From the NCBI GenBank assembly GCA_028694995.1, contig JAQVJU010000002.1, forward strand, positions 67,503-131,502: a stretch of DNA of 64,000 nt. Reading direction: 5' to 3'. This document shows positions 43 to 63,588 of this stretch, in pieces; position 1 is the stretch's first letter; each line of letters opens with the position of its first letter. The position numbers were made by a program, and so were the translations under genes. The stretch comes from Minisyncoccota bacterium (lineage in GTDB: Bacteria > Patescibacteriota > Minisyncoccia > UBA6257). Below the pieces are notes generated by a model. That model was not told the origin of the DNA. It was given only the letters and a program-made list of their open reading frames with translations, and did no database searches.

Positions 43-996
43 TTAAGCCCTATCCCAGGGAAAATTATTGCCAAAATGACCCCATTGACTGGTTTTGAAA
101 TAGATAGGTTTTCTTAAGTCTAAGAAATCAATAATTCCTTTAGGAGTTAAATCAAATCCTTTAATTTGTATTTCCTTATTATCTATTAAAGCATTTTTCA
201 TCAAAGGTTGTTTTTGGCCAATAGCATAAGCTAATTTAACTAAAACTTCTTTTGCTTTGTATTTTTTTAAATAACTTATGGCTATTTTCCTTGCCATATA
301 AGCAGCACTACGATCAACTTTTGAAGGGTCTTTGCCACTAAAACAACCTCCACCAACAGGTATTCTTGGCCCATAACTATCAACAATAATTTTTCTTCCA
401 GTTAAACCAGTATCAGCATCAAACCCACCAATATTCCAATCACCACAAGGATTAATACAATATTCTTTTGCTTTTATTAAGGATTTTACTAATTTTTTAA
501 GATCTTTCTGGGGAACATTTTGAAAACTAACAACTACTGTTGATATCTTTTTATTTTTTATTGTTACTTGAGTTTTACCATCAAAGGGATATTTTTCATA
601 AATCTTTTGACATAAATTCCTTGCTAATTCATATTCTAAAGGCATTAAGCTTTTTGTTTCTCTGGTAGCATAGCCAATCATAATCCCCTGATCCCCTGCT
701 CCACCAATTTCTACTCCTTGAGCTATTTCTGGACTTTGTTCAACTAGATTAATACTTAAATCATAATTCTTATTAATTAAGCTATAAACAATATCTGTGA
801 TTTGTTTTTTACTAATTTTAGCTTTACTTTTAATTTCTCCAATAATGACGATTTTATTATGACCTCCGATAACTTCTATAGCGGTGCGACTATTTTTATC
901 TTTTTCTAGATAATAATCTAAAATCTTATCTGCAATTTGGTCACAAATTTTATCAGGATGTTTTGGAGAAACAAATTCTGCTGTTTTTATTTTCAT
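43..996 (-). CDS. metK: S-adenosylmethionine synthetase (short, 317 aa)
   Basis: N-term 'SPKHPDKICDQIADKILD' and 'GGGCFSGKDPSKVDRSAAYMARKIA' match MetK signature motifs; full ORF in track. Confidence 0.9.
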   Translation of the reverse strand: MKIKTAEFVSPKHPDKICDQIADKILDYYLEKDKNSRTAIEVIGGHNKIVIIGEIKSKAKISKKQITDIVYSLINKNYDLSINLVEQSPEIAQGVEIGGAGDQGIMIGYATRETKSLMPLEYELARNLCQKIYEKYPFDGKTQVTIKNKKISTVVVSFQNVPQKDLKKLVKSLIKAKEYCINPCGDWNIGGFDADTGLTGRKIIVDSYGPRIPVGGGCFSGKDPSKVDRSAAYMARKIAISYLKKYKAKEVLVKLAYAIGQKQPLMKNALIDNKEIQIKGFDLTPKGIIDFLDLRKPIYFKTSQWGHFGNNFPWDRA

Positions 997-1020
997 AATT
1001 CATATTGATTTAAAATTAAA

Positions 1021-1178
1021 ACTCCTTCTTTAGAGAAGGAGTTTCTTAAATTAAAAATCGACCTTATTATCCTTCCCTAAATTAGGGCTGGATTTAGCAC
1101 CTTCTTTAAGAAGTCATCTTAAAGGGTTGCTGCCGGATCTTAGGACCAGTTTCCTCCCCGGGCTCTTGATAACTATTA
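1021..1178 (-). ncRNA. SAM-I (S-box) riboswitch with terminator-type expression platform in metK leader
   Basis: Minus-strand read gives 'GUUAUCAAGAGCCCGGGGAGGAAACUGGUCCUAAGAUCCGGCAGCAACC...GGUGCUAAAUCCAGCC...GGAUAAUAAGG', matching SAM-I conserved blocks (AUCAAGAG, GGAGGGA, UGGCCC, CCGGCAACC, GGUGCCAAUUCC). Hairpin ACUCCUUCU-cuaaag-AGAAGGAGU + U-run (1021-1050) follows, immediately 5' of metK ATG. Confidence 0.7.
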
Positions 1179-1287
1179 ATATTCAATTATTTTGTATTAT
1201 ATTTTAGCAAAATTAAATCTTTTTGTAAATATTGATTTTTTATTTATAGCTTTATAATTAAATTATAATAAATTTTATTTTACACCG

Positions 1288-2124
1288 CTATAAAGTTTGT
1301 TCATATGATTGCTTAATCAAATCAAAAATATCGTTTACTTCATTCATTAATGTGATTTTTGCCATACCTTTATATCCCCATTGAAATGACGTTATATCGT
1401 CAACCATTTTTTTTGGATCGTTATACTTTGCTTCCCGAAGCAAAACCCTAATATGGCTTTTACCAAATTCAAACTTCACAAAACTTTTTGTTGTGCGGTA
1501 GGTAATTCCAGTTTTTTGGTTCGCAATCTCTTCTACATTTGGTAATAATTTTATTTTTTCCTGAAGCTCGTAAAAAATCTTTTTAACTTCTGGATTGGTT
1601 TTGCCAGGTGGATATTCATAACTCTTTTGTGTTTCCCCCTTTTTGGGACTATAAATATTTTCTAGGTATAAAATATCTTCTTTGTATGATGTATATTTGA
1701 CTAGTTCTACATAATTAACTTCCTGGGCGGCGATTTTAGTCCTATTATCAAAACCTTGTGAAATAAGAATGACTCGTGGATTACTCCAATTAATTTTAAT
1801 GTTTTTGCCGAGTTTATTCGCTACCAAAAGCTCAAAGTGTTTTTTGTTTTTACGAAGCCAATTAAAATAAAATAAACCTTGCGTAAATATAGCGTCATCT
1901 TGCCCCCATTTATATTCAATGATAACAGGAGCATTTGTTTCGTCTATTGCTAATGTATCAATTCTGCCACCTGTGGTCGGGTATTCTTTAGCCAAAAAAC
2001 GCATACCTAGTAAATCCTCAAGGTTATCAGCGAAAAAATCCCTCAAGCTCGCTTCATTAGTAAAATAATTTAAATCAAGTGACACTTGGTTAACTTTTTT
2101 ATCTTTTATTTTAAAAATAGGCAT
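1288..2124 (-). CDS. hypothetical protein, PD-(D/E)xK (RecB/NucS-like) nuclease fold suspected
   Basis: 'GRIDTLAIDETNAPVIIEYKW' resembles the D...(D/E)xK nuclease core of NucS/DUF91-type proteins; start placed at internal Met (MPIFKI) to avoid overlap with upstream ORF. Confidence 0.45.
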   Translation of the reverse strand: MPIFKIKDKKVNQVSLDLNYFTNEASLRDFFADNLEDLLGMRFLAKEYPTTGGRIDTLAIDETNAPVIIEYKWGQDDAIFTQGLFYFNWLRKNKKHFELLVANKLGKNIKINWSNPRVILISQGFDNRTKIAAQEVNYVELVKYTSYKEDILYLENIYSPKKGETQKSYEYPPGKTNPEVKKIFYELQEKIKLLPNVEEIANQKTGITYRTTKSFVKFEFGKSHIRVLLREAKYNDPKKMVDDITSFQWGYKGMAKITLMNEVNDIFDLIKQSYEQTL

Positions 2125-2128
2125 AGTG

Positions 2129-2443
2129 TTATTGTTTTCTAATTTTAAATATAGATACAAAGAATAACCCTGCAGCAATTAAATCTAGAATCACCCAGGC
2201 TTCTTTACTTAAATGAGTAGGTGTTAAGGGATTAAATAAAAGAGCTAATCCTCCCATTATCCAAACCCATTTGCCTTTTTTAACCTCATAGGCAATGGAT
2301 AAAACAAAAAGGGCAATTCCAGCGACTACCCATCTTAAAAAAATATAATACCAATAAGGCCAAATTCCAGAAGGAATGGCCAATAAAAGCATTATAATGG
2401 CTACAATGGATAGGATATTTTTATTTTCCATAAATTTTATCAA
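2129..2443 (-). CDS. small integral membrane protein (3 predicted TM)
   Basis: hydrophobic 104-aa ORF, no recognisable motif. Confidence 0.35.
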   Translation of the reverse strand: MIKFMENKNILSIVAIIMLLLAIPSGIWPYWYYIFLRWVVAGIALFVLSIAYEVKKGKWVWIMGGLALLFNPLTPTHLSKEAWVILDLIAAGLFFVSIFKIRKQ

Positions 2444-2524
2444 AATTTATCCCCACCACTTTCAATAAATATTATATCATTTTTTTGGAAAACAAGGAAT
2501 GCTTAGGGTATAATAAGGAACATA

Positions 2525-4102
2525 ATGAAAAATCAAGAAAAATTAGCTCAAATAATAGTAGAAAGGGCTAATAAACAACAAGTATCTACTAAACAAGAGA
2601 TTATTGAAATTCAAAGGGAAGTTAGTAAAGAATTTCATAATTTTTTTATTCCTTTTTCTGAATTATTAAAAAGCTATAAAAAATTAATTCAATTAAAGAA
2701 AATCCTATCTAATAAACAATTAGAAGGATTATTAAAAAAAGCTAGGATTCGTTCTTTATCAGGCATTGTGGCCATTACTGTAATTACTAAACCTTATCCT
2801 TGTCCAGGAAATTGTTTGTATTGCCCTGATATATCTAATATGCCTAAAAGCTATTTACCTGATGAACCAGCTTGTATGCGAGCTTTATTAAATAAATTTG
2901 ATCCATATAAGCAAATCCAAATGAGAATTCAAGCTTTAAGAGCTAATGGACATCCAACAGATAAAATAGAATTAATTGTCTTAGGAGGTACTTGGTCGTA
3001 TTATCCTAAAAAATACCAAAATTGGTTTATTAAAAGATGTTTTGATGGAGCTAATAATAAAACATCTAAAAACCTAGAATTAGCTCAAAAAATAAATGAA
3101 AAAGCTGAAAATAGGATTATTGGTCTAACAATAGAAACCAGACCTGATTATATCAATCTAGAAGAAGTTGAAAGATTAAGAAAATTAGGTGTTACTAGAG
3201 TAGAATTAGGAATTCAAAGCCTAGAAGATGATGTTTTAGAATTTAATAAAAGAGGTCATTTAATTGATAAAACCATAAAAGCAACTGAGTTATTAAAAAA
3301 TGCTGGGTTCAAGATTACTTATCATATGATGCTTAATTTACCTGGCTCTGATTTAAAGAAAGATGAAAAAATGTTTATTAAACTATTTTCCAATCCTGAT
3401 TTTCAACCAGATCAATTAAAAATATATCCTTGTGCTGTTTTACAAACCGCACCTCTGTATAAAATGTTTTTAGATAAAAAATACCAACCATATACAGAAA
3501 AACAGCTAATAAACCTTTTAATTAAAATCAAAGAGGAAATTCCTTCATATGTTAGGATTATCAGAATTATTCGTGATATTCCTGCTAATAATATTATTGC
3601 TGGGAATAAAGTTTCCAATTTAAGACAAGTCATTCAAGCTCAGATGAAAAAAGAAAACAAATCCTGTCAATGTATAAGATGTCGAGAACCTTATGATATT
3701 CCAATTGATTTTAAAAATATTAAATTAATTCATAGAGAATATATGGCTAATAATGGTAAAGAAATCTTTCTTTCTTATGAAGATGTAAAAAACAATAAGA
3801 TTTTAGCTTTTCTAAGATTACGTTTACCAAATGAATGGACTTTTCCTTATCTTAAAGATTCTGCCCTTATACGTGAATTACATAGTTATGGTATAGTGGC
3901 GCCTTTAAAAAAGGATAAGAAATCTAATATTCAACATAAAGGCTTGGGTAGTAAATTAATGAAACAAGCAGAAAAGATTGTTAAAGAACATACTCAATAT
4001 AATAAAATAGCCGTGATTAGCGGCATAGGAGTTAGAGAATATTATCGTAAATTAGGATATCGTTTATTTAACTCTTATATGATTAAAAAGATTAGAAAAT
4101 AG
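2525..4102 (+). CDS. elp3: Elp3-family radical SAM + GNAT acetyltransferase (tRNA U34 carboxymethyluridine synthase homolog)
   Basis: 'YPCPGNCLYCPD' radical-SAM Cys motif typical of Elp3, TIM-barrel middle region, C-terminal GNAT-like region; 525 aa. Confidence 0.75.
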   Translation: MKNQEKLAQIIVERANKQQVSTKQEIIEIQREVSKEFHNFFIPFSELLKSYKKLIQLKKILSNKQLEGLLKKARIRSLSGIVAITVITKPYPCPGNCLYCPDISNMPKSYLPDEPACMRALLNKFDPYKQIQMRIQALRANGHPTDKIELIVLGGTWSYYPKKYQNWFIKRCFDGANNKTSKNLELAQKINEKAENRIIGLTIETRPDYINLEEVERLRKLGVTRVELGIQSLEDDVLEFNKRGHLIDKTIKATELLKNAGFKITYHMMLNLPGSDLKKDEKMFIKLFSNPDFQPDQLKIYPCAVLQTAPLYKMFLDKKYQPYTEKQLINLLIKIKEEIPSYVRIIRIIRDIPANNIIAGNKVSNLRQVIQAQMKKENKSCQCIRCREPYDIPIDFKNIKLIHREYMANNGKEIFLSYEDVKNNKILAFLRLRLPNEWTFPYLKDSALIRELHSYGIVAPLKKDKKSNIQHKGLGSKLMKQAEKIVKEHTQYNKIAVISGIGVREYYRKLGYRLFNSYMIKKIRK

Positions 4103-58579: not shown

Positions 58580-59482
58580 TTAATCAACAGCAAATAATTC
58601 ATTTTCTCTAATAGAAGACTCTAAAAGACTTTTTATAAAAGGATTTTTAAATTGACTTTGATATATTCTTAAAGCTTTTTCCTTGTTTTCTTTAATTTCT
58701 GGAGAAAGCATAAATTTCTCCCAACCTCCATCAATAGTAATCAAATTCAAAGGCGGTAAAACAAATAAATCAGGGGCATATTTCTTAGGTTGAGGAAAAT
58801 CTTCATGATGAACTAAGTATTTATAAGAAAAGAGTTTTTGAGTAAATTCTTCTATTTTCTCTAATTCTTCCCATTTCTCTTCTTTGATTAAATCTTCATA
58901 TTCTTGTAAAGATTCTTTAAGATCCGATTGAGTTTTTTTATCTTTTAAAATCTCTTCAATCACCTTACCAATTATTGAATGATCTTTATGACTATCATCA
59001 GGATGAGGATAAAAAAGAACATTTGGTTGAATTTTTTCAATCTGTTTTAATAAAACTTCTTTCAATTCTTCAGAATTAACCTCATTTACTTTACTGTCTT
59101 GATAATTTAAATAAATTAAATTTTCCTTAGGAACTCCTAATATCTTAGTTGCATTTTCAAATTCTTGATAACGTTCAACTTTTAAATTATGACGATTGCC
59201 ATCGGTGACTAAAACAATATAAACTTCAGCTCCATTTTTAATAGATTCATTAATATATCCCCCACAAGCAATAGTTTCATCATCAGGATGAGGAGCAAAG
59301 ACTAAAACCACATCTTCTGACTGAGGTAAATAAACTTCATTTAAAAAATGAATGGCTAGCTGAGGTAAAACTGGATTAACTTTAAAATATCCAAAAACTG
59401 ATAATCCAATTATTAAAAGCAAAAACAATACTAATAATTGCCATTTATGACTAGCTTTAATTTTCTTTAATATTTTTCCCAT
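58580..59482 (-). CDS. PIG-L/LmbE family deacetylase with N-terminal TM anchor
   Basis: 'FAPHPDDETIACGG' and downstream 'HPDDSHKDH'. Confidence 0.7.
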   Translation of the reverse strand: MGKILKKIKASHKWQLLVLFLLLIIGLSVFGYFKVNPVLPQLAIHFLNEVYLPQSEDVVLVFAPHPDDETIACGGYINESIKNGAEVYIVLVTDGNRHNLKVERYQEFENATKILGVPKENLIYLNYQDSKVNEVNSEELKEVLLKQIEKIQPNVLFYPHPDDSHKDHSIIGKVIEEILKDKKTQSDLKESLQEYEDLIKEEKWEELEKIEEFTQKLFSYKYLVHHEDFPQPKKYAPDLFVLPPLNLITIDGGWEKFMLSPEIKENKEKALRIYQSQFKNPFIKSLLESSIRENELFAVD

Positions 59483-59826
59483 TATAATCCTAATATTTTC
59501 TTTAAAGCTACAGCATTGTTATATTTCATATCAACAGCAGAATATAATAAAGTTACCTTTTTCTTTTTTTTAATAATTTCTTTTAATTCGTTTACAATTT
59601 CTTTTTTCAATTTTAATTCTTCTTTGTATTTTTTTTGAAATTCTAACCATTTCTCTGGATCATGATTAAACCATTGACGTAATTCATTACTGGGTGATAT
59701 TTCTTTAAACCATAAATCTATCTTAGCTTTTTCCTTAGATATTCCTCTAGGCCAGAGATGATCTATTAATATCCGATACCCATCATCTTCTTCTAATTTC
59801 TCATAAATTCTTTTAATTTTAACCAT
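59482..59826 (-). CDS. DUF488 family protein
   Basis: 'MVKIKRIYE...DGYRILIDHLWPRGISKEKA...WFKEISPSNELRQWFNHDPEKW' pattern. Confidence 0.65.
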   Translation of the reverse strand: MVKIKRIYEKLEEDDGYRILIDHLWPRGISKEKAKIDLWFKEISPSNELRQWFNHDPEKWLEFQKKYKEELKLKKEIVNELKEIIKKKKKVTLLYSAVDMKYNNAVALKKILGL

Positions 59827-59957
59827 ATTTTAAAAGTTTTATTAAACTTTGTTGTAATTCTATCAAAAAATCACCAAAAAGGCGATTTTTTATTATATAA
59901 TATAAAAATATTGTAAATATTATTTTAATAGAAATTTTTATTATTACCTAGGGAGGC

Positions 59958-59986
59958 TTGACAAAATCATAAAAAAGTTCATAATA
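59958..59986 (+). promoter_or_regulatory. sigma-70-like promoter for rSAM cassette
   Basis: TTGACA-17 nt-ATAATA about 40-70 nt upstream of rSAM start. Confidence 0.4.
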
Positions 59987-60025
59987 ATTATATAAAGAAC
60001 CTTGAAAATTTAAATAGGAAAGAAG

Positions 60026-61129
60026 GTGATAAAAATGTTTTACCAACCAGTTACAACTCCCATTATTAAACCAGTTAATGGAATGTGTAATTTATCCTGT
60101 TTATACTGCTACACACTAAATCTAAAGAAATATACTGATAAAAATATGATGTGCCCAAAGACACTAAGAGCGACTATTGATTTCTTTTGCGCTGATCAAG
60201 ATGATATTGAATTTATTTGGCATGGCGGCGAACCTTTACTTGCAGGACTAGAGTTTTATCGTAAAATAATAAAAATTCAAAAAAACTGGAAATTAAAAGG
60301 AAGAAGAATAACAAATACCCTTCAAACTAATGCTACCCTTATCACCCCTGAATGGGTTAAATTTTTTGCTGAAAATGATTTTTTTATTGGTGTAAGTTTA
60401 GATGGACCGAAAGAGTTTCATGATCAATTACGCACTTACCCCAATGGTAAAGGATCATATGATGACGTTATGAAAGGTATTAATTTATTACGTCAAGCTA
60501 AAATATTCAATGGAGTTATTTGTGATATAAGTACTGTTAATTACAAATTTCCTAAAGAAATTTTTAATTTTTTTATCCTAGAAGATATAAAAAAATTAAA
60601 ATTCACTAGAGTAAAAAGTATTGGTCATTGTAATAATGTATCTTCGCTAGCTATTTCCCCTGCGCAATACACAGATTTTATGATTACTATCTTTGATCAT
60701 TGGCTTGATTTAGATGATCCAGAAATTGAAATTCGGGATATACAAAGTGTTGTTAATTTAATTTTAGGAGGAAATAGACGTGAATGCATCTATATGGGAC
60801 AATGCGATCAATTTGTTACTGTTTATTCCGATGGTTCAATTTACGGCTGTGATTCTTTTCCTAAAATAGATGAACTGTATTTTGGCAATATATTTGAAAA
60901 GCCAATTAAAGTTAGATCAAGCCCTCATTTACTAGCTTTTCGAAAACTACTAAAGGAAAGAAAGGAATTTTGTCAAACCTGTGATTGGTACTTTATATGC
61001 CAAGGAGGGTGTGCAAAAGATAATTACGACCAATTAAACTCTATTCAGCCACTAGATGAGATATGTAAGAATTTACAACGATATTTCAAGCATATATCAA
61101 CTAAAATACAATCATATAACCTTGTTTAA
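60026..61129 (+). CDS. radical SAM enzyme with C-terminal SPASM domain (anSME-like peptide-modifying maturase)
   Basis: 'CNLSCLYCY' CxxxCxxC, 'WHGGEPLL' SAM motif, SPASM 'CIYMGQCDQF...GCD' and 'CQTCDWYFICQGGC'; true start may be ATG at 60035 after RBS AGGAAAGAAGG. Confidence 0.85.
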   Translation: MIKMFYQPVTTPIIKPVNGMCNLSCLYCYTLNLKKYTDKNMMCPKTLRATIDFFCADQDDIEFIWHGGEPLLAGLEFYRKIIKIQKNWKLKGRRITNTLQTNATLITPEWVKFFAENDFFIGVSLDGPKEFHDQLRTYPNGKGSYDDVMKGINLLRQAKIFNGVICDISTVNYKFPKEIFNFFILEDIKKLKFTRVKSIGHCNNVSSLAISPAQYTDFMITIFDHWLDLDDPEIEIRDIQSVVNLILGGNRRECIYMGQCDQFVTVYSDGSIYGCDSFPKIDELYFGNIFEKPIKVRSSPHLLAFRKLLKERKEFCQTCDWYFICQGGCAKDNYDQLNSIQPLDEICKNLQRYFKHISTKIQSYNLV

Positions 61130-61185
61130 CTAAAAATTACCTTATTTCATTTAACTAAAAAGGAGGTAAAGAATTATGTTAAATG

Positions 61186-61353
61186 ATGCTTGCACCTTAA
61201 AGGAGAATCCCATCATTATTCCTAAGGTTTTAATTGAAGCAAAAAAAGAAGTAAATATCCTAACTTCAAACAAAAGACAGCCTTGGGATAAAGCTTGGGA
61301 AAAAGGCCCTTGGGATAAAGGACATTGGGCTAATAGAAAGTAATGCTCTTTCT
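61186..61353 (+). CDS. putative RiPP precursor peptide (55 aa), core PWDKAWEKGPWDKGHWANRK
   Basis: not in ORF track (below size cutoff); AGGAGG at 61171-76, 9 nt before ATG; same strand, 56 nt after rSAM stop; terminator follows. Confidence 0.55.
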
Positions 61354-61370
61354 TCTCCAAAGCCTCTTCT

Positions 61371-61407
61371 AAAGATTCAGAAGAGGCTTTTTCTTTTAAT
61401 ATTTTAT
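61371..61407. terminator. bidirectional rho-independent terminator closing the rSAM-peptide cassette
   Basis: AGCCTCTTCT-aaagattc-AGAAGAGGCT-TTTTCTTTT. Confidence 0.65.
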
Positions 61408-62259
61408 GGCTCCTAATAAATCTCTAAGATAATCTTCATCAATTATTTTATAATCTTTTAGGTATAATCCTGTGATTTTATATAATTTATATGCAATAAA
61501 CTTCCTCCATTCTAATAAATCCTTGGGTTTTGATTTAAAAGGAATAACTATTGTTTTTAAATATTTCTCACTTAGATAACCTTCTGGAATAAATGAACTA
61601 ATCAATAATTCTTCTAGAAACATTTTGGCTGGCATATTTTTACTTAGTTTTATCAACAATTCATTATTTTTCTCAGCTATCTTAGTAATTTTCAAAAATA
61701 AATCTTCATTCTTTCTTAATATTAAATGAAAAAATTCATGGGCTAAAACTGCTAAAGGAAAAAAATCCTTAGGGATTTGAAGATTAAAAGGAATTTCAAC
61801 TACAATAAAACTATTTTTTGGTTCCCAGGAAAACCAAGCATTTATCTCTTTATCTTTACTTGTTAAATCAGAAACAAGATAAATAGGTACTCTAGAAATT
61901 AAAAAATTATTTATTCCACTTAATTTTTTTATTTTAAAGATTACTTTTTGAAACAACGATTCATTATCTAGAAAATATTGTTGCCATGAAAGTAAATGCT
62001 TATATGCTTTATGCCAATATATATCAAATTCTTTATCTAATAAAATAATTGAATTTTGTATTTCTTTTACATTATCTTTCCCAATATTCTTTTCAATTTG
62101 TTTCCATATTTTATCCTCCTTTTCCCCATAAAAAGACAAACTAACCTTTTCATCTAGCAAATATTTTTGTAAATCTGATTTATTAAACTTTACTCTATTT
62201 GATTTTTGAGTAAAAAATAAGAGATTAGATAAACGAGAAATTTTAATTGATAAACTCAT
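61396..62259 (-). CDS. hypothetical protein with HExxH motif (possible zinc peptidase)
   Basis: 'LAVLAHEFFHLI'; convergent with cassette. Confidence 0.45.
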   Translation of the reverse strand: MSLSIKISRLSNLLFFTQKSNRVKFNKSDLQKYLLDEKVSLSFYGEKEDKIWKQIEKNIGKDNVKEIQNSIILLDKEFDIYWHKAYKHLLSWQQYFLDNESLFQKVIFKIKKLSGINNFLISRVPIYLVSDLTSKDKEINAWFSWEPKNSFIVVEIPFNLQIPKDFFPLAVLAHEFFHLILRKNEDLFLKITKIAEKNNELLIKLSKNMPAKMFLEELLISSFIPEGYLSEKYLKTIVIPFKSKPKDLLEWRKFIAYKLYKITGLYLKDYKIIDEDYLRDLLGAIKY

Positions 62260-62595
62260 ATTTTAAAAATATATATTAAGTTTAACAAACTTTAATAAGC
62301 CTTTAGATAAAAAACTAAAATTTTCCGCCAATCGGGTTTTAAAAATTTACTTATGTTTTTTTTCATATTATCTGATTATAACAAAAATAAACTTTTTGTC
62401 CCAGATTTTGCTAGCTCAGAGCCGTGAACAACGTTAGAACTATTATACAACAGCAAAATGAATATACCTATATACCAAATCTAAGAAAATTTGGTAAGAA
62501 ATAGATTTTACCCCACCTCCTAGCTCACTATTGTTTTGAAACAAAGAACTCCCAAAAATTGAGAATTCTTTACAAGATAACGAATAATTTTTTGC

Positions 62596-63588
62596 TTAAA
62601 AAGTTTCTTTACTACCGTCTTCGTAAATAATGGTATTAACTTCCCATTTGTATTGCAGATTCTGTAATTCTGTATTCTTTAGCTTAACGTCTTTATCAAT
62701 AAACTGATTATAATCTGTTCCCACATTCAACCAGGTATTACTTCCATTAGCTGAGATTACTTGGTCATAGCCTACGTTTACTGCCTTAATTTTATTGTCA
62801 AAAATATCATAAAATGTAAGCACCCCCTGGACCCCTCTTATATTCTTATCTGTCTTATTAGTGAATTTCAAATCCATAGTGATTTTGTCTTGGTAATCAC
62901 CTGACATATAATCGGCTTCGTGAAATCCTTTTTTGGTAATTTCAAGTATAACTTTATCTACTTTTACTTGATTCTGATCAAAGCCCGATATATCGGTCTG
63001 ACCCGCACCACCTTGTTGCAGATTTTTATTTACTTCGGATGCCTTACTTAAGTTCTGCACGCTTGCCACGAAACCCATAATAATTGCCAAAACGACGATG
63101 GCAACTAAGGAAAGGACAAGACCGTGTTTATTGGACAAAGTTTCAGGCTGTTCAATCTCTGACGCCTCTGCCTTCTTATCATACTTGTTTGCTATCAAAT
63201 GCAGAATAACTCCCCCCGTAAGACCAATTACAAAAGACAAAACTATTACAAACATCCCGCCAATCGCTGTCCCAAACGCCGCTCCAACTTGCTCAAATTC
63301 GTTAGTGGTTGAGATTATAGCTTTTGAACCTAAAACAAATGTAAACACCAAAGAAGACACGGGGAGCAAGAAAAAAGATATTTCGGTTGAACGGAAAAGT
63401 CTCTCCACAATATGATTCTTTTCAGTAAATTGCCAAACGCTCCAAATCATTAAAACCCAAATAATCAAAAACGCCCAGCCAAGATAGGTATTAAGTGTCA
63501 TCAAAGCATAATTTTGCGTAAAAATAAGAGCTGGCAACAGAGCCAAAAGAATTTTAAGAACTATGTGTTTTTTATATTGATTTTCCAT
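62596..63588 (-). CDS. membrane protein with C-terminal extracytoplasmic domain, hypothetical
   Basis: ~5 TM then 150-aa soluble domain. Confidence 0.4.
   Translation of the reverse strand: MENQYKKHIVLKILLALLPALIFTQNYALMTLNTYLGWAFLIIWVLMIWSVWQFTEKNHIVERLFRSTEISFFLLPVSSLVFTFVLGSKAIISTTNEFEQVGAAFGTAIGGMFVIVLSFVIGLTGGVILHLIANKYDKKAEASEIEQPETLSNKHGLVLSLVAIVVLAIIMGFVASVQNLSKASEVNKNLQQGGAGQTDISGFDQNQVKVDKVILEITKKGFHEADYMSGDYQDKITMDLKFTNKTDKNIRGVQGVLTFYDIFDNKIKAVNVGYDQVISANGSNTWLNVGTDYNQFIDKDVKLKNTELQNLQYKWEVNTIIYEDGSKETF

Follow-up and report, generated by a model that had tools for sequence, protein, structure and literature searches.

Does a gene for a radical SAM enzyme, followed by an open reading frame (ORF) of only 55 residues in the genome of a CPR bacterium, encode a ribosomally made and enzymatically modified peptide (RiPP)? 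The question was raised by a 64-kb stretch of DNA (the window) for which a sequence-only reading had suggested a possibly CPR-like origin, and which belongs to a Ca. Pacebacteria/Paceibacterota MAG. CPR bacteria, whose genomes are tiny, are believed to attach themselves to other microbes, and their interaction molecules are scarcely known. They are regarded as almost free of natural-product pathways, and loci of this kind have rarely been reported from them. The same reading had described a candidate undescribed RiPP cassette of four elements, namely a sigma-70-like promoter, a radical SAM (rSAM)/SPASM enzyme, a 55-residue ORF led by AGGAGG, and a hairpin terminator. All four are present between 59958 and 61400, and neither a curated family nor a publication in the literature searched covers the rSAM-peptide system. 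The computational checks suggested along with that reading all turned out in its favour, and no outcome named there as a refutation was seen. The pair of genes, usually joined by a gene for an HExxH protein, is found again in many related genomes and seems to represent a RiPP family that has not been described before. Judged from the sequence features described below, the enzyme most probably cross-links the 55-residue peptide.

The putative promoter (TTGACA-16 nt-CATAAT; 59958..59985, + strand) matches the consensus at 11 of 12 positions, lies about 50 nt 5' of the rSAM start codon and is the top-scoring promoter-like match within 59700..62400. Promoter-like sites are not in excess in this AT-rich stretch (18 compared to 17.5 in shuffled sequences); the site was therefore judged on its own quality and position only, and it is its position that suggests a promoter function. 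The ribosome-binding site AGGAGG (61161..61166, + strand) precedes the ATG of the peptide gene by nine nucleotides. An intrinsic terminator hairpin with a 12-bp stem and a subsequent T-run (61359..61390, + strand) is situated between the convergent stop codons of the peptide gene and the HExxH gene. Its folding energy of -17.5 kcal/mol (z = -3.8) was equalled by none of 200 shuffled sequences.

The rSAM enzyme (MDD3488110.1, annotated as 'radical SAM protein'; Pfam Radical_SAM) had been described as a protein of 367 residues. An ORF of this length does exist from a GTG (60026..61129), but the homologues comprise 364 residues and a Shine-Dalgarno sequence (GAAGGTGA) is located 5' of the ATG at 60035, so that the likely coding sequence is 60035..61129 (+ strand, 364 aa). 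The CX3CX2C motif of the SAM-cleaving [4Fe-4S] cluster (CNLSCLYC; 60086..60109, + strand) contains the conserved residues C21, C25 and C28. The twin-Cys SPASM tail noticed earlier proved to be a region (60785..61066, + strand) whose eight cysteines (C254/260/275/329 and C316/319/325/347) are predicted to hold two auxiliary [4Fe-4S] clusters; the motif CQTCDWYFICQGGC...C spans 60971..61066. These residues align one-to-one with the ligands of anSMEcpe, which we take to be C255/261/276/330 and C317/320/326/348. Across 89 aligned rSAM homologues, each of the 11 cluster cysteines is at least 97% conserved, and D276 is conserved, too. The enzyme has the cluster cysteines and, as described below, the adjacent and co-conserved precursor gene of a radical SAM/SPASM peptide maturase.

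Comparison with NCBIfam gave the highest score for the anSME model TIGR03942 (286 bits; cut-off 349.45), followed by DynA NF041298 (269 bits; cut-off 450). Since anSME is no peptide cyclase, its top rank speaks against a cross-linking function. The ranks below the anSME models are occupied nearly exclusively by maturases that form cyclophanes or other cross-links (DynA, DarW, GrrM/OscB, YhhB, DarE, FxsB, AmcB). None of the NCBIfam scores reaches a curated family cut-off; for cyclophane families the values are (bits/cut-off) 153/445 for YhhB, 170/310 for GrrM/OscB, 136/370 for FxsB, 130/425 for AmcB, and 96/450 for XyeB. A scan of 42 diverse rSAM members gave the same result, as none reached the cut-off of anSME or of any named cyclophane synthase; the lowest E-value for TIGR03942 was 5e-88. 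The AF2 model of the enzyme (pLDDT 92) resembles anSMEcpe with a TM value of 0.87 and the rSAM domain of ChlB with a TM value of 0.86; anSMEcpe is also the best match among PDB sequences (178 bits, 29% identity). The rSAM enzymes offer a new clade, which lies between anSME and the cyclophane synthases.

The small ORF (61176..61343, + strand) encodes the peptide MLNDACTLKENPIIIPKVLIEAKKEVNILTSNKRQPWDKAWEKGPWDKGHWANRK (MDD3488111.1, 'hypothetical protein'), for which Pfam and NCBIfam contain no family. A six-frame scan of the window for two close W-x-K/R units retrieved this ORF; the sole other match lay in a stop-riddled frame and corresponds to no ORF. The database contained 31 homologues, all with an invariant GPWDKGHWANRK, and 70 distinct peptides were available overall. 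Between loci whose GC content spans 28-52%, almost every degenerate codon of the core shows synonymous changes, and the small ORF is regarded as a genuine gene under purifying selection. The leader carries the conserved motif P16-K-V-L-I/L-x-A-K-K-E with variants of the form P-K/R/Q-V-L-L-x-A-K-K-E, and the core comprises roughly residues 36-55 (PWDKAWEKGPWDKGHWANRK). Conservation of the core is well above that of the enzymes, as identity drops to 43% for the rSAM and to 17% for the HExxH protein.

Three consecutive Trp-x-Lys units had been regarded as the hallmark of the core. Aromatic-x-x units are indeed present, but it is the C-terminal 11-mer that is constrained and not the Lys. All 70 peptides terminate in W-D-x-G-H/R-W-x-N-R, whose commonest form is the near-invariant PWDKGHWANRK (61308..61340, + strand). 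W-D occurs in 70 of 70 peptides and an Ala between Trp and Asn in 67 of 70, whereas K occupies the third position of the last unit in 60 peptides and is replaced by Q in three, by D in three, by E in two, and by R and N in one each. Upstream of the 11-mer, zero to four additional units are found per peptide, which consist of W, Y or H, then D/E/N, then K/N/R (e.g. YEK, YDK, HDK). These units follow the aromatic-x-x logic of cyclophane RiPPs; they correspond to the aromatic(1)-x(2)-x(3) motifs that define triceptide precursors, which frequently have a basic residue in third place (PMC11499958). The alignment suggests W-D-K and W-A-N (or H-W-A) of the 11-mer as the most probable cross-link sites. 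Thioether chemistry is excluded, because the core contains no Cys. The Asp, Gly, His, Ala, Asn, Arg and Lys residues that do not vary in the 11-mer exceed the needs of an aromatic-x-x motif, and other or additional chemistry is therefore possible.

Each of the 17 non-redundant rSAM-anchored loci has the rSAM and peptide genes side by side, and nearly all of the 70 distinct peptides adjoin an rSAM orthologue. In L020 and L024 (44-47% rSAM identity) the order is inverted such that the peptide gene is upstream, and adjacency is kept. The genes flanking these loci are not conserved. The surroundings of the cassette are variable regions with restriction-modification and transposase genes, and another neighbour is a gene that weakly matches the abortive-infection domain HEPN_AbiV. 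No exporter was found in any of the 17 loci, in line with the missing transporter noted for the window. In L027 (GCA_028718665.1, contig JAQULI010000001.1), whose flanks are about 90% identical to the window, a blastn comparison showed that exactly 59897..61399 is missing: 16 bp replace this 1503-bp unit, which contains the promoter, the rSAM and peptide genes and the terminator, and the HExxH gene is retained. The cassette had been called self-contained. As a discrete two-gene indel it is, but an HExxH gene accompanies it in 16 of the 17 rSAM-anchored loci; the exception is the pair of L024, on whose 4.4-kb contig there is no HExxH gene. Seen from the HExxH side, an rSAM gene is adjacent in 46 of 80 metagenome loci, and about 12 of some 60 informative loci (approximately 20%) are orphans that lack the rSAM and peptide genes nearby; most of these HExxH genes are intact. 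Such orphans are difficult to reconcile with a leader peptidase or tailoring enzyme that serves this peptide alone. Decayed copies of the cassette are common (L004, L039, L081, L022). The module occurs in Parcubacteria-type lineages with genomes of 28-52% GC, and the proposed RiPP family is confined to Patescibacteria (CPR).

The convergent gene (61396..62259, - strand) encodes a protein of 287 residues (MDD3488112.1, 'hypothetical protein') with a zincin-like fold in the structural model. Its HEFFH motif (H174, E175, H178; 61726..61740, - strand) is predicted to bind the metal and to form the catalytic centre. E217, which is located 39 residues C-terminal of HEFFH in the segment EExxxSSFxPEGY, is the probable third ligand. 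Among 53 sequences (17-64% identity), no variation occurs at H174, E175, H178, E217 and G227, and conservation of E155, Y266 and D274 amounts to at least 90%. The family thus contains the HExxH motif and the downstream Glu by which zincins of the gluzincin type are recognized. In the model, an N-terminal helical domain of about 120 residues is present, and the active-site helix comes after a three-stranded sheet. The protein lacks both a signal peptide and membrane segments, and its N-terminus belongs to the folded part of the model. In Pfam and NCBIfam it belongs to no described family, peptidase families included; SprT-like, DUF2201_N and Wss1 gave only weak, sub-threshold signals in distant members or in the profile search, and Foldseek yielded no significant match. 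The family comprises 213 clusters at 50% identity. An exhaustive HMM search showed every member to be a stand-alone protein (about 260-350 aa); fusions to an rSAM were not detected.

From the gene arrangement, the conservation and purifying selection, the cluster ligands, the folds and the indel, all determined computationally, we infer a chemistry, modification sites and a role for the HExxH protein and for the product. We consider it reasonably probable that the locus is a RiPP locus, whose rSAM enzyme cross-links the peptide in the form of aromatic-x-x cyclophanes and whose HExxH protein acts on the peptide. The promoter at 59958 would drive a joint transcript of the rSAM and peptide genes that stops at the hairpin at 61359..61390. 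The leader segment P-K/R/Q-V-L-L-x-A-K-K-E would dock the 55-residue product onto the enzyme, which is predicted to contain one SAM cluster, two auxiliary [4Fe-4S] clusters and, being as compact as anSME and ChlB, no separate recognition domain. SAM would be cleaved reductively, and the 5'-deoxyadenosyl radical would take a side-chain hydrogen, most likely from the C-beta two positions beyond an aromatic residue. The carbon radical may then attack the indole ring (alternatively a phenol or an imidazole), whose aromaticity would be restored by a base together with the auxiliary clusters. Each aromatic-x-x unit would thereby be converted to one three-residue cyclophane with a mass change of -2 Da. 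Up to four units may react (W37-D-K, W41-E-K, W46-D-K, and W51-A-N), the obligatory ones being those in PWDxGHWANRK. The HExxH protein would be a cytoplasmic metalloenzyme of the zincin type that acts on the peptide. Our preferred role for it is that of a peptidase, which may remove the leader or destroy the peptide for self-protection. As a second reading, it may be a ChlH-like Fe/alpha-ketoglutarate enzyme that hydroxylates the beta position of the invariant Asp/His. The locus contains no exporter gene, and a dispensable, interaction-type role of the product appears more likely than an essential one.

It is rather unlikely that the rSAM modifies the adjacent peptide by a chemistry other than three-residue aromatic-to-C-beta cyclophanes. 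Candidates are a dynobactin-like link from His nitrogen to carbon, a two-bond Trp-Lys annulation of the WgkB/tryglysin type, a darobactin-like ether, epimerisation, or oxidation of the invariant Asp or Asn. Dynobactin has both a Trp ring and a His ring, a combination similar to W-D-x-G-H-W-A-N. By analogy, the likeness of the core to the ring patterns of dynobactin and darobactin, the latter with its Trp-x-Lys C-C ring (PMC9055067), may serve as a lead. The models of the 'bamabactin' makers DynA, DarW and DarE all score on the CPR enzyme, DynA being second-best; His stands beside Trp and invariant non-aromatic residues are left unexplained by a plain cross-link; the enzyme stays under all cyclophane-family cut-offs; and the conserved D276 is the counterpart of the catalytic Asp of anSME. 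However, the enzyme is far under the cut-offs of DynA (450) and DarE (650), and the dynobactin precursor is unrelated to the CPR peptide except for the Trp...His pattern. The CPR core has no C-terminal aromatic residue and ends with N-R-K, a transporter or protease-transporter gene is missing, and the producers of dynobactin and darobactin are Gammaproteobacteria and not CPR bacteria. Moreover, the exchange of W, Y and H and the free third position fit a ring-to-C-beta bond best (PMC11499958), thioethers are ruled out by the Cys-free core, and a multiple cyclophane synthase, ChlB, is the enzyme's neighbour in structure. The same neighbour raises the second reading of the HExxH protein, namely that of a diverged, stand-alone alpha-KG-HExxH beta-hydroxylase, which would hydroxylate the Asp of the invariant W-D-x and/or the His after cyclisation. 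In the ChlA/ChlB system of Chlorogloeopsis (PDB 9gm3, 8s5f), the rSAM is likewise compact and free of a separate recognition domain, the precursor likewise contains several aromatic-Asp-basic units, and a native ChlB motif is Y-D-R (PMC11499958). PMC12636437 cites beta-hydroxylases of the ChlH type as IPR026337, and ChlH is reported there to hydroxylate Asp and His of a pre-cyclised peptide. Asp and His are also invariant non-aromatic residues of the CPR peptides, and in structure the CPR rSAM is equally close to anSME and to the rSAM domain of ChlB. We nevertheless consider a hydroxylase unlikely. The NCBIfam model for alpha-KG-HExxH gave zero matches in 40 close and 10 distant members at E-values up to 1-10, a profile search of PDB sequences with the HExxH family did not retrieve ChlH (8s5f), and sequence similarity between the two proteins is not detectable. 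ChlH is fused to the rSAM of ChlB, whereas the CPR proteins are encoded by separate convergent genes, some of which are orphans. An invariant Arg or Lys for the distal carboxylate of alpha-KG is not found, as R252 occurs in 37 of 53 sequences. A mostly fermentative metabolism without a TCA cycle, as is usual for CPR bacteria, also counts against this reading. ChlB shares only 23% identity with the CPR rSAM, its host is a cyanobacterium, and an invariant C-terminal 11-mer distinguishes the CPR core.

It is similarly doubtful that the HExxH protein is mainly a peptidase for self-protection or resistance, directed against the mature peptide of the cell itself or of a neighbour and without a part in biosynthesis. 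Its gene is convergent and has its own upstream region; L027 has cleanly lost the rSAM and peptide genes and kept the HExxH gene; and the further orphans L025/L045, L053, L062, L085 and L086 stand in unrelated contexts that have the HExxH gene alone in common. The dN/dS value between the copies of the window and L027 is 0.33 and falls within the range of linked copies (0.13-0.34), so that there is no sign of relaxed selection, although this value blends the time before and after the loss. Compared to the flanking housekeeping genes (omega 0.03-0.10), the HExxH gene evolves faster (0.2-0.3). On the other hand, a protein that has neither signal peptide nor membrane segment could act on intracellular peptide only, premature stops are present in two of 12 partnerless copies (L084, L089), and orphan genomes may carry the rSAM and peptide genes at another site. 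The predicted cytoplasmic location would also suit a precursor of an intracellular, cofactor-like molecule that is not secreted. A small peptide whose C-terminus is invariant, together with an rSAM/SPASM enzyme and a metalloprotease, is reminiscent of PQQ and mycofactocin, the core is far more conserved than either enzyme, and exporters are missing. Such a function is nonetheless very improbable: the cassette is present or absent between near-identical genomes, frequently decayed, variable in the number of upstream repeats, and located in variable regions beside the mobile and defence-like genes mentioned above, all of which argues for an accessory trait rather than a cofactor pathway. Finally, the rSAM might be an ordinary anSME and the small ORF a coincidental neighbour. 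TIGR03942 is its top NCBIfam match and anSMEcpe (PDB 4k36-4k39) its best PDB match, and the two enzymes have equal length, three clusters and the C275-D276 pair in common. However, all 42 members score below the cut-off of 349, and a signature of Cys/Ser-type sulfatases (C/S-x-P/A-x-R), be it PS00523 or a relaxed form, is absent from all ORFs of at least 150 aa in the window. The neighbour is instead a Trp-rich peptide without C/S-x-P-x-R, which is conserved and selected at every locus and is gained and lost jointly with the rSAM as a 1.5-kb unit. These findings effectively refute an ordinary sulfatase maturase.

If the enzyme forms an ordinary Trp-to-C-beta cyclophane, the locus adds a useful yet incremental new RiPP family. 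A bolder view, which we put forward tentatively, is that CPR bacteria widely carry a lineage-specific polycyclic Trp/His RiPP with a frozen PWDxGHWANRK 'warhead', made by a new clade of anSME/ChlB-like rSAM enzymes and accompanied by a new HExxH family. That family would then serve as a protease in immunity or processing, or would be a second HExxH hydroxylase lineage of independent origin. A core frozen across classes would imply a conserved molecular target, which might reside, for example, on host cells that bear epibionts or on competing CPR cells. The module of two or three genes is small enough for direct synthesis and testing in E. coli. The role of the HExxH family bears on the reuse of the zincin fold in RiPP pathways, be it as peptidase, immunity factor or oxygenase.

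Two groups of known systems share single features with the locus. YhhA/YhhB/YhhC, XyeB, GrrM/OscB, FxsB, AmcB and HtkB likewise combine a maturase with an adjacent precursor of repeated aromatic-x-x units, and in YhhC systems a separate tailoring enzyme acts on Asp (PMC12186529). YhhC is a classical Fe/2OG enzyme, whereas the CPR partner is an HExxH protein. With gluzincins such as M1 aminopeptidases, thermolysin and Wss1/SprT-like proteins, and with peptidases for resistance to, or processing of, peptide natural products, this partner has the HExxH motif, the downstream Glu and the sheet-helix layout in common. It differs from them by scores under all thresholds, by the distance of 39 residues between HExxH and Glu, and by its own N-terminal helical domain of about 120 residues.

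The cassette consists of two co-oriented genes, each with its own ribosome-binding site, and ends with a terminator. The open reading frame of the radical SAM (rSAM) enzyme spans 60026..61129 (+); because the homologues are 364 aa long and a Shine-Dalgarno sequence precedes the ATG at 60035, the gene is likely to occupy 60035..61129. The 55-aa peptide is encoded 46 nt past this frame, at 61176..61343 (+), and is preceded by AGGAGG at 61161..61166 (+). A 12-bp hairpin with a T-run follows at 61359..61390 (+; -17.5 kcal/mol, z = -3.8). The promoter-like sequence TTGACA-16 nt-CATAAT at 59958..59985 (+) matches in 11 of 12 positions and is the top match in 59700..62400; since such sites are as frequent in the region as in shuffled sequence (18 versus 17.5), it is plausible by position only. 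These four elements read as the sequence-only reading had described them. That reading had also regarded the cassette as self-contained, which holds for the rSAM-peptide unit but misses a convergent gene at 61396..62259 (-), which codes for a 287-aa protein with an HExxH motif and recurs, likewise arranged, in 16 of the 17 non-redundant rSAM-anchored loci. The exact proteins are deposited as MDD3488110.1 ("radical SAM protein"), MDD3488111.1 and MDD3488112.1 (both "hypothetical protein") and originate from a 170 kb contig of a Candidatus Pacebacteria/Paceibacterota MAG. In a six-frame translation of the whole window, whose GC content is 31%, two closely spaced W-x-K/R units occur in the peptide ORF and in one stop-riddled frame that contains no ORF.

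A database search identified 31 peptide homologues with a length of 44-60 aa, which share an invariant C-terminus GPWDKGHWANRK and a conserved leader segment P-K-V-L-L-Q-A-K-K-E-A. In all rSAM-anchored loci from GTDB genomes and public assemblies, a short ORF with Trp units adjoins the rSAM gene, which is the co-occurrence expected from the initial proposal. In two loci with rSAM enzymes of 44-47% identity (L020, L024) the peptide lies upstream instead of downstream of the rSAM gene; the linkage of the two genes therefore outlasts rearrangement. Among loci of 28-52% GC, synonymous differences affect nearly every degenerate codon position of the last 12 residues. Pooling of all loci gave 70 distinct peptides, so that the small ORF is clearly conserved. 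These patterns argue that the peptide is encoded by a real gene which is under selection and linked to the enzyme. Several peptide ORFs (L016, L017, L022) lack an in-frame ATG and require an alternative start codon. Gene callers will miss such peptides, which explains why the protein database holds only 31 of them compared to more than 120 rSAM orthologues.

The 70 peptides served as the basis for all motif counts. The last core unit begins with W-D in every case; its third residue is Lys in 60 peptides, Gln in three, Asp in three, Glu in two, and Arg and Asn in one each. The following unit is W-A-N in 67 of 70 peptides and W-S-N or W-E-N in the remainder. The number of Trp residues per core is two (16 peptides), three (17), four (35), five (1) or six (1), and upstream units may drop the Trp (PLDK, PRDK) or carry a Tyr (YEK, YDK) or a His (HDK) in its place. 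The threefold W-x-K repeat originally emphasized is thus one common form of the core, but not its constrained feature. The constrained element is the terminal block W-D-x-G-H/R-W-x-N-R, which reads PWDxGHWANRK in most peptides. A variable copy number, an exchangeable aromatic residue 1 and a free residue 3 are the features that characterize cyclophane motifs of the type aromatic(1)-x(2)-x(3) in the literature (PMC11499958). A divergent precursor with five W-x-x units (EWNKGKEWTKSWDNKGPWSQQWKNKN) and without the otherwise invariant GHWANRK end is encoded in locus L078 at 1239..1535 (-), between an rSAM gene (66% identical) and an HExxH gene.

The only Pfam domains of the rSAM enzyme are Radical_SAM and Fer4_12. 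Among the NCBIfam models, the highest score was obtained for the anaerobic sulfatase-maturating enzyme (anSME) TIGR03942, with 286 bits at a cut-off of 349; the model of the dynobactin maturase DynA yielded 269 bits (cut-off 450). Two more anSME models, followed by DarW, GrrM/OscB, PapB, YhhB, DarE, FxsB and AmcB, ranked further down and remained well under their cut-offs. The enzyme displays the general features of rSAM/SPASM RiPP enzymes, as had been proposed, and reaches the curated threshold of none of the named families; this applies equally to the 42 diverse family members scanned. In 89 homologues, conservation reaches at least 97% at all eleven cluster cysteines (C21/25/28; C254/260/275/329; C316/319/325/347) and at D276; the cysteines align with the ligands of anSMEcpe, an anSME of known structure. 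An AF2 model (pLDDT 92) superimposes with TM values of 0.87 on anSMEcpe and 0.86 on the rSAM domain of the triceptide "multiple cyclophane synthase" ChlB, and is farther from CteB (0.76) and SuiB (0.63-0.67). The protein is therefore a complete, compact SPASM enzyme with three clusters that lacks an N-terminal recognition domain. Cysteines and superpositions place it at equal distance from a protein-modifying (anSME) and a peptide-cyclising (ChlB) enzyme. Closest by score is anSME, followed by DynA and the darobactin-type enzymes. The reading as an actual anSME was rejected: the scores stay below the cut-off in 42 of 42 members, no window ORF of at least 150 aa contains a sulfatase signature, and the neighbouring peptide is conserved. 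The proposal had named clustering with anSME next to another substrate as the outcome that would speak against it; this was not observed.

The HExxH protein matched no entry of Pfam, NCBIfam, PHROG or PADLOC and no PDB sequence. One database contains 166 homologues, and an exhaustive HMM search yielded 213 clusters at 50% identity; the best 150 of these 213 are stand-alone proteins of about 260-350 aa, with no rSAM-HExxH fusion among them. In 53 sequences of 17-64% identity, H174, E175, H178, E217 and G227 are invariant; conservation is 90% or more at E155, P225, Y266 and D274, and the invariant positions include neither Arg nor Lys. The confident AF2 model (pLDDT 91, pTM 0.90) begins with a helical domain, which is followed by a three-stranded sheet, the helix with the HExxH motif and further helices at the C-terminus, and a Foldseek search against the PDB gave no significant hit. 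Distant members produce sub-threshold SprT-like and DUF2201_N matches, and the family profile reaches Wss1p at E = 0.04. Based on model and motif, the protein is a predicted zincin-like metalloenzyme of a new family. A 246-aa HELLH protein encoded just upstream of the rSAM gene in L019 (3098..3838, -) is unrelated (hhalign probability 5%) and was rejected as a paralogue.

The syntenic sister genome L027 (GCA_028718665.1) is 86-93% identical to the window in the HExxH gene, the DUF488 gene and the ATPase-MscL stretch, and has 16 bp in place of 59897..61399, which comprises exactly promoter, rSAM gene, peptide gene and terminator. The rSAM-peptide pair is therefore a discrete unit, whose loss the HExxH gene has outlasted in intact form. 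A second, independent indel relative to L027 (~58697..59460) affects a PIG-L/BshB-like deacetylase gene (58580..59482, -) that is not conserved beside the cassette elsewhere. In a census of 80 HExxH-anchored metagenome loci, the rSAM gene is adjacent in 46 (37 with a canonical core, nine with variants such as cores ending in GHWSNRK or GHWTNRK or the divergent EWNKGKEWTKSWDNKGPWSQQWKNKN), and the peptide occurs alone in five (a contig end accounts for three of these and a deletion for one, and one is unexplained). In twelve loci, the next 1.7 kb or more downstream contain no partner, and in eight of them this is true of both sides; 17 are too short to judge. Two of the 12 partnerless copies contain premature stops (L084, L089), one lacks the N-terminus (L086) and two are cut by a contig end (L106, L108); five of those checked are intact (L045/L047, L053, L056, L062, L085). 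Homology shared by partnerless copies is limited to the HExxH gene itself. The dN/dS value of the window HExxH gene versus the orphan copy of L027 is 0.33, compared to 0.13-0.34 for linked copies and 0.03-0.10 for flanking housekeeping genes, so that this weak test gives no sign of relaxed selection on the orphan. Decay is also seen within cassettes: the rSAM gene is frameshifted in L004 (445..1556), a deletion in L039 (5924..6178, -) has left a fusion of rSAM N-terminus and peptide C-terminus (LLAGLEFYRKAVEIQHTWEKQDPWDKGHWANRK), the peptide is deleted in L081, and the HExxH gene is shortened in L022 (5326..5706) and L023. Patchy presence and decayed copies identify the cassette as an accessory trait.

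The computations establish a leader-core peptide, a three-cluster enzyme, conserved aromatic-x-x units and a conserved metalloenzyme partner. As a working analogy, the ChlA/ChlB(-ChlH) triceptide system comes closest. In the proposed mechanism, the leader would dock on the rSAM enzyme, and the 5'-deoxyadenosyl radical would abstract a side-chain hydrogen, most likely from C-beta of residue i+2. The resulting carbon radical would add to the aromatic ring, and oxidation through the auxiliary clusters together with deprotonation would restore aromaticity. Each unit would thereby lose 2 Da, with up to four rings in the window peptide and two in minimal cores.

The HExxH enzyme may act on the peptide after the rSAM enzyme. 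We lean slightly towards a peptidase, counting leader removal and self-protection together; the orphan copies shift the balance within this reading towards self-protection. The appeal of a hydroxylase of the invariant Asp or His, resembling ChlH, the HExxH domain fused to ChlB, is that Asp and His are the residues which ChlH hydroxylates once its peptide substrate has been cyclised (PMC12636437), and that Y-D-R is a motif on which ChlB acts (PMC11499958). This reading is nevertheless rather unlikely, as the protein has no invariant basic residue and neither the single sequence nor profiles of 40 and 53 sequences revealed a link to ChlH or the curated HExxH-domain model. The same searches gave no link to peptidase families. 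Other roles take up the remaining probability.

All-against-all clustering of ORFs from 17 loci revealed no fourth conserved gene for a transporter, protease or recognition protein; the sole other recurrent "family" is an antisense ORF within the rSAM gene. The absence of a transporter from the operon, pointed out before, thus extends to exporters in all 17 loci. DUF488, the PIG-L deacetylase, a P-type ATPase and orf330 are missing from other loci and were discarded as cassette members. In L019, a gene for an S9 (prolyl-oligopeptidase family) peptidase at 610..2646 (-) lies just upstream of the rSAM gene, and was seen in this locus only; most cores have a Pro in front of the W-D-x units, and some cyclophane RiPPs are processed by S9 proteases (PMC12957482).

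Neither the peptide nor the HExxH protein nor this rSAM clade is represented by a curated model, the core motif strings were not found in the literature searched, and the titles and abstracts of the triceptide papers retrieved do not mention CPR bacteria. The cassette is classed as an rSAM-modified RiPP of predicted chemistry, whose core is exceptionally conserved and whose HExxH partner is unusual and unclassified. Where family members carry a source name, it is Parcubacteria, Paceibacterota, Minisyncoccia, Portnoybacteria, Wolfebacteria or "Patescibacteria group". The locus occurs in groundwater and bioreactor samples, among them the "Hain-H4x 0.1 um" assemblies. Some members are labelled Pacearchaeota (L025/L026, protein cluster P0187), or Nanoarchaeota or Heimdallarchaeota (L023 and L015). 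The Pacearchaeota-labelled cluster is probably mis-binned, since its neighbours are bacterial (DNA polymerase III gamma/tau = DnaX, UvrA, UvrC, CysS), and the remaining two contigs do not have the length needed to judge the label; the archaeal labels are thus doubtful, and an archaeal distribution was dismissed. Carriage by phages was rejected, as IMG/VR viral contigs contain neither an HExxH homologue nor DNA of the core motif, and their rSAM proteins are generic (at most ~30% identity over full length). A defence system was likewise rejected: in PADLOC, the rSAM enzyme hits only the viperin model pVip, with a similarity that is generic for rSAM proteins.

The cassette tends to occur in variable regions where defence or mobility genes are found. 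In the window, orf330 (62596..63588, -) codes for a 330-aa membrane protein with a C-terminal match to phrog_16659. Locus L001 is near-identical to the window but runs past its end; near its cassette lie this 330-aa membrane protein, a DUF2726 gene and a weak HEPN_AbiV match (L001 8652..10028). A restriction-modification pair and a serine recombinase gene (L005 10360..13095) are found near the cassette of L005, and methyltransferase and helicase genes (L025 4401..9356) lie beside the orphan HExxH gene of L025. In the genome of L011/L030, a second RiPP-like pair (L029, 7326..8473, +) is located beside the cassette, with an IS1595 transposase gene in between; a 50-aa Cys-rich ORF (...GRPCCGGSCIGGNCKAVPKIAAAFK) is paired there with a 305-aa rSAM protein of ~23% identity to the one studied here. 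This CPR genome thus seems to contain a small RiPP island. Far from the cassette, at 1064..1175 (-), the window contains a full-length SAM riboswitch (RF00162, 76.8 bits), whose target is probably a methionine or SAM metabolism gene.
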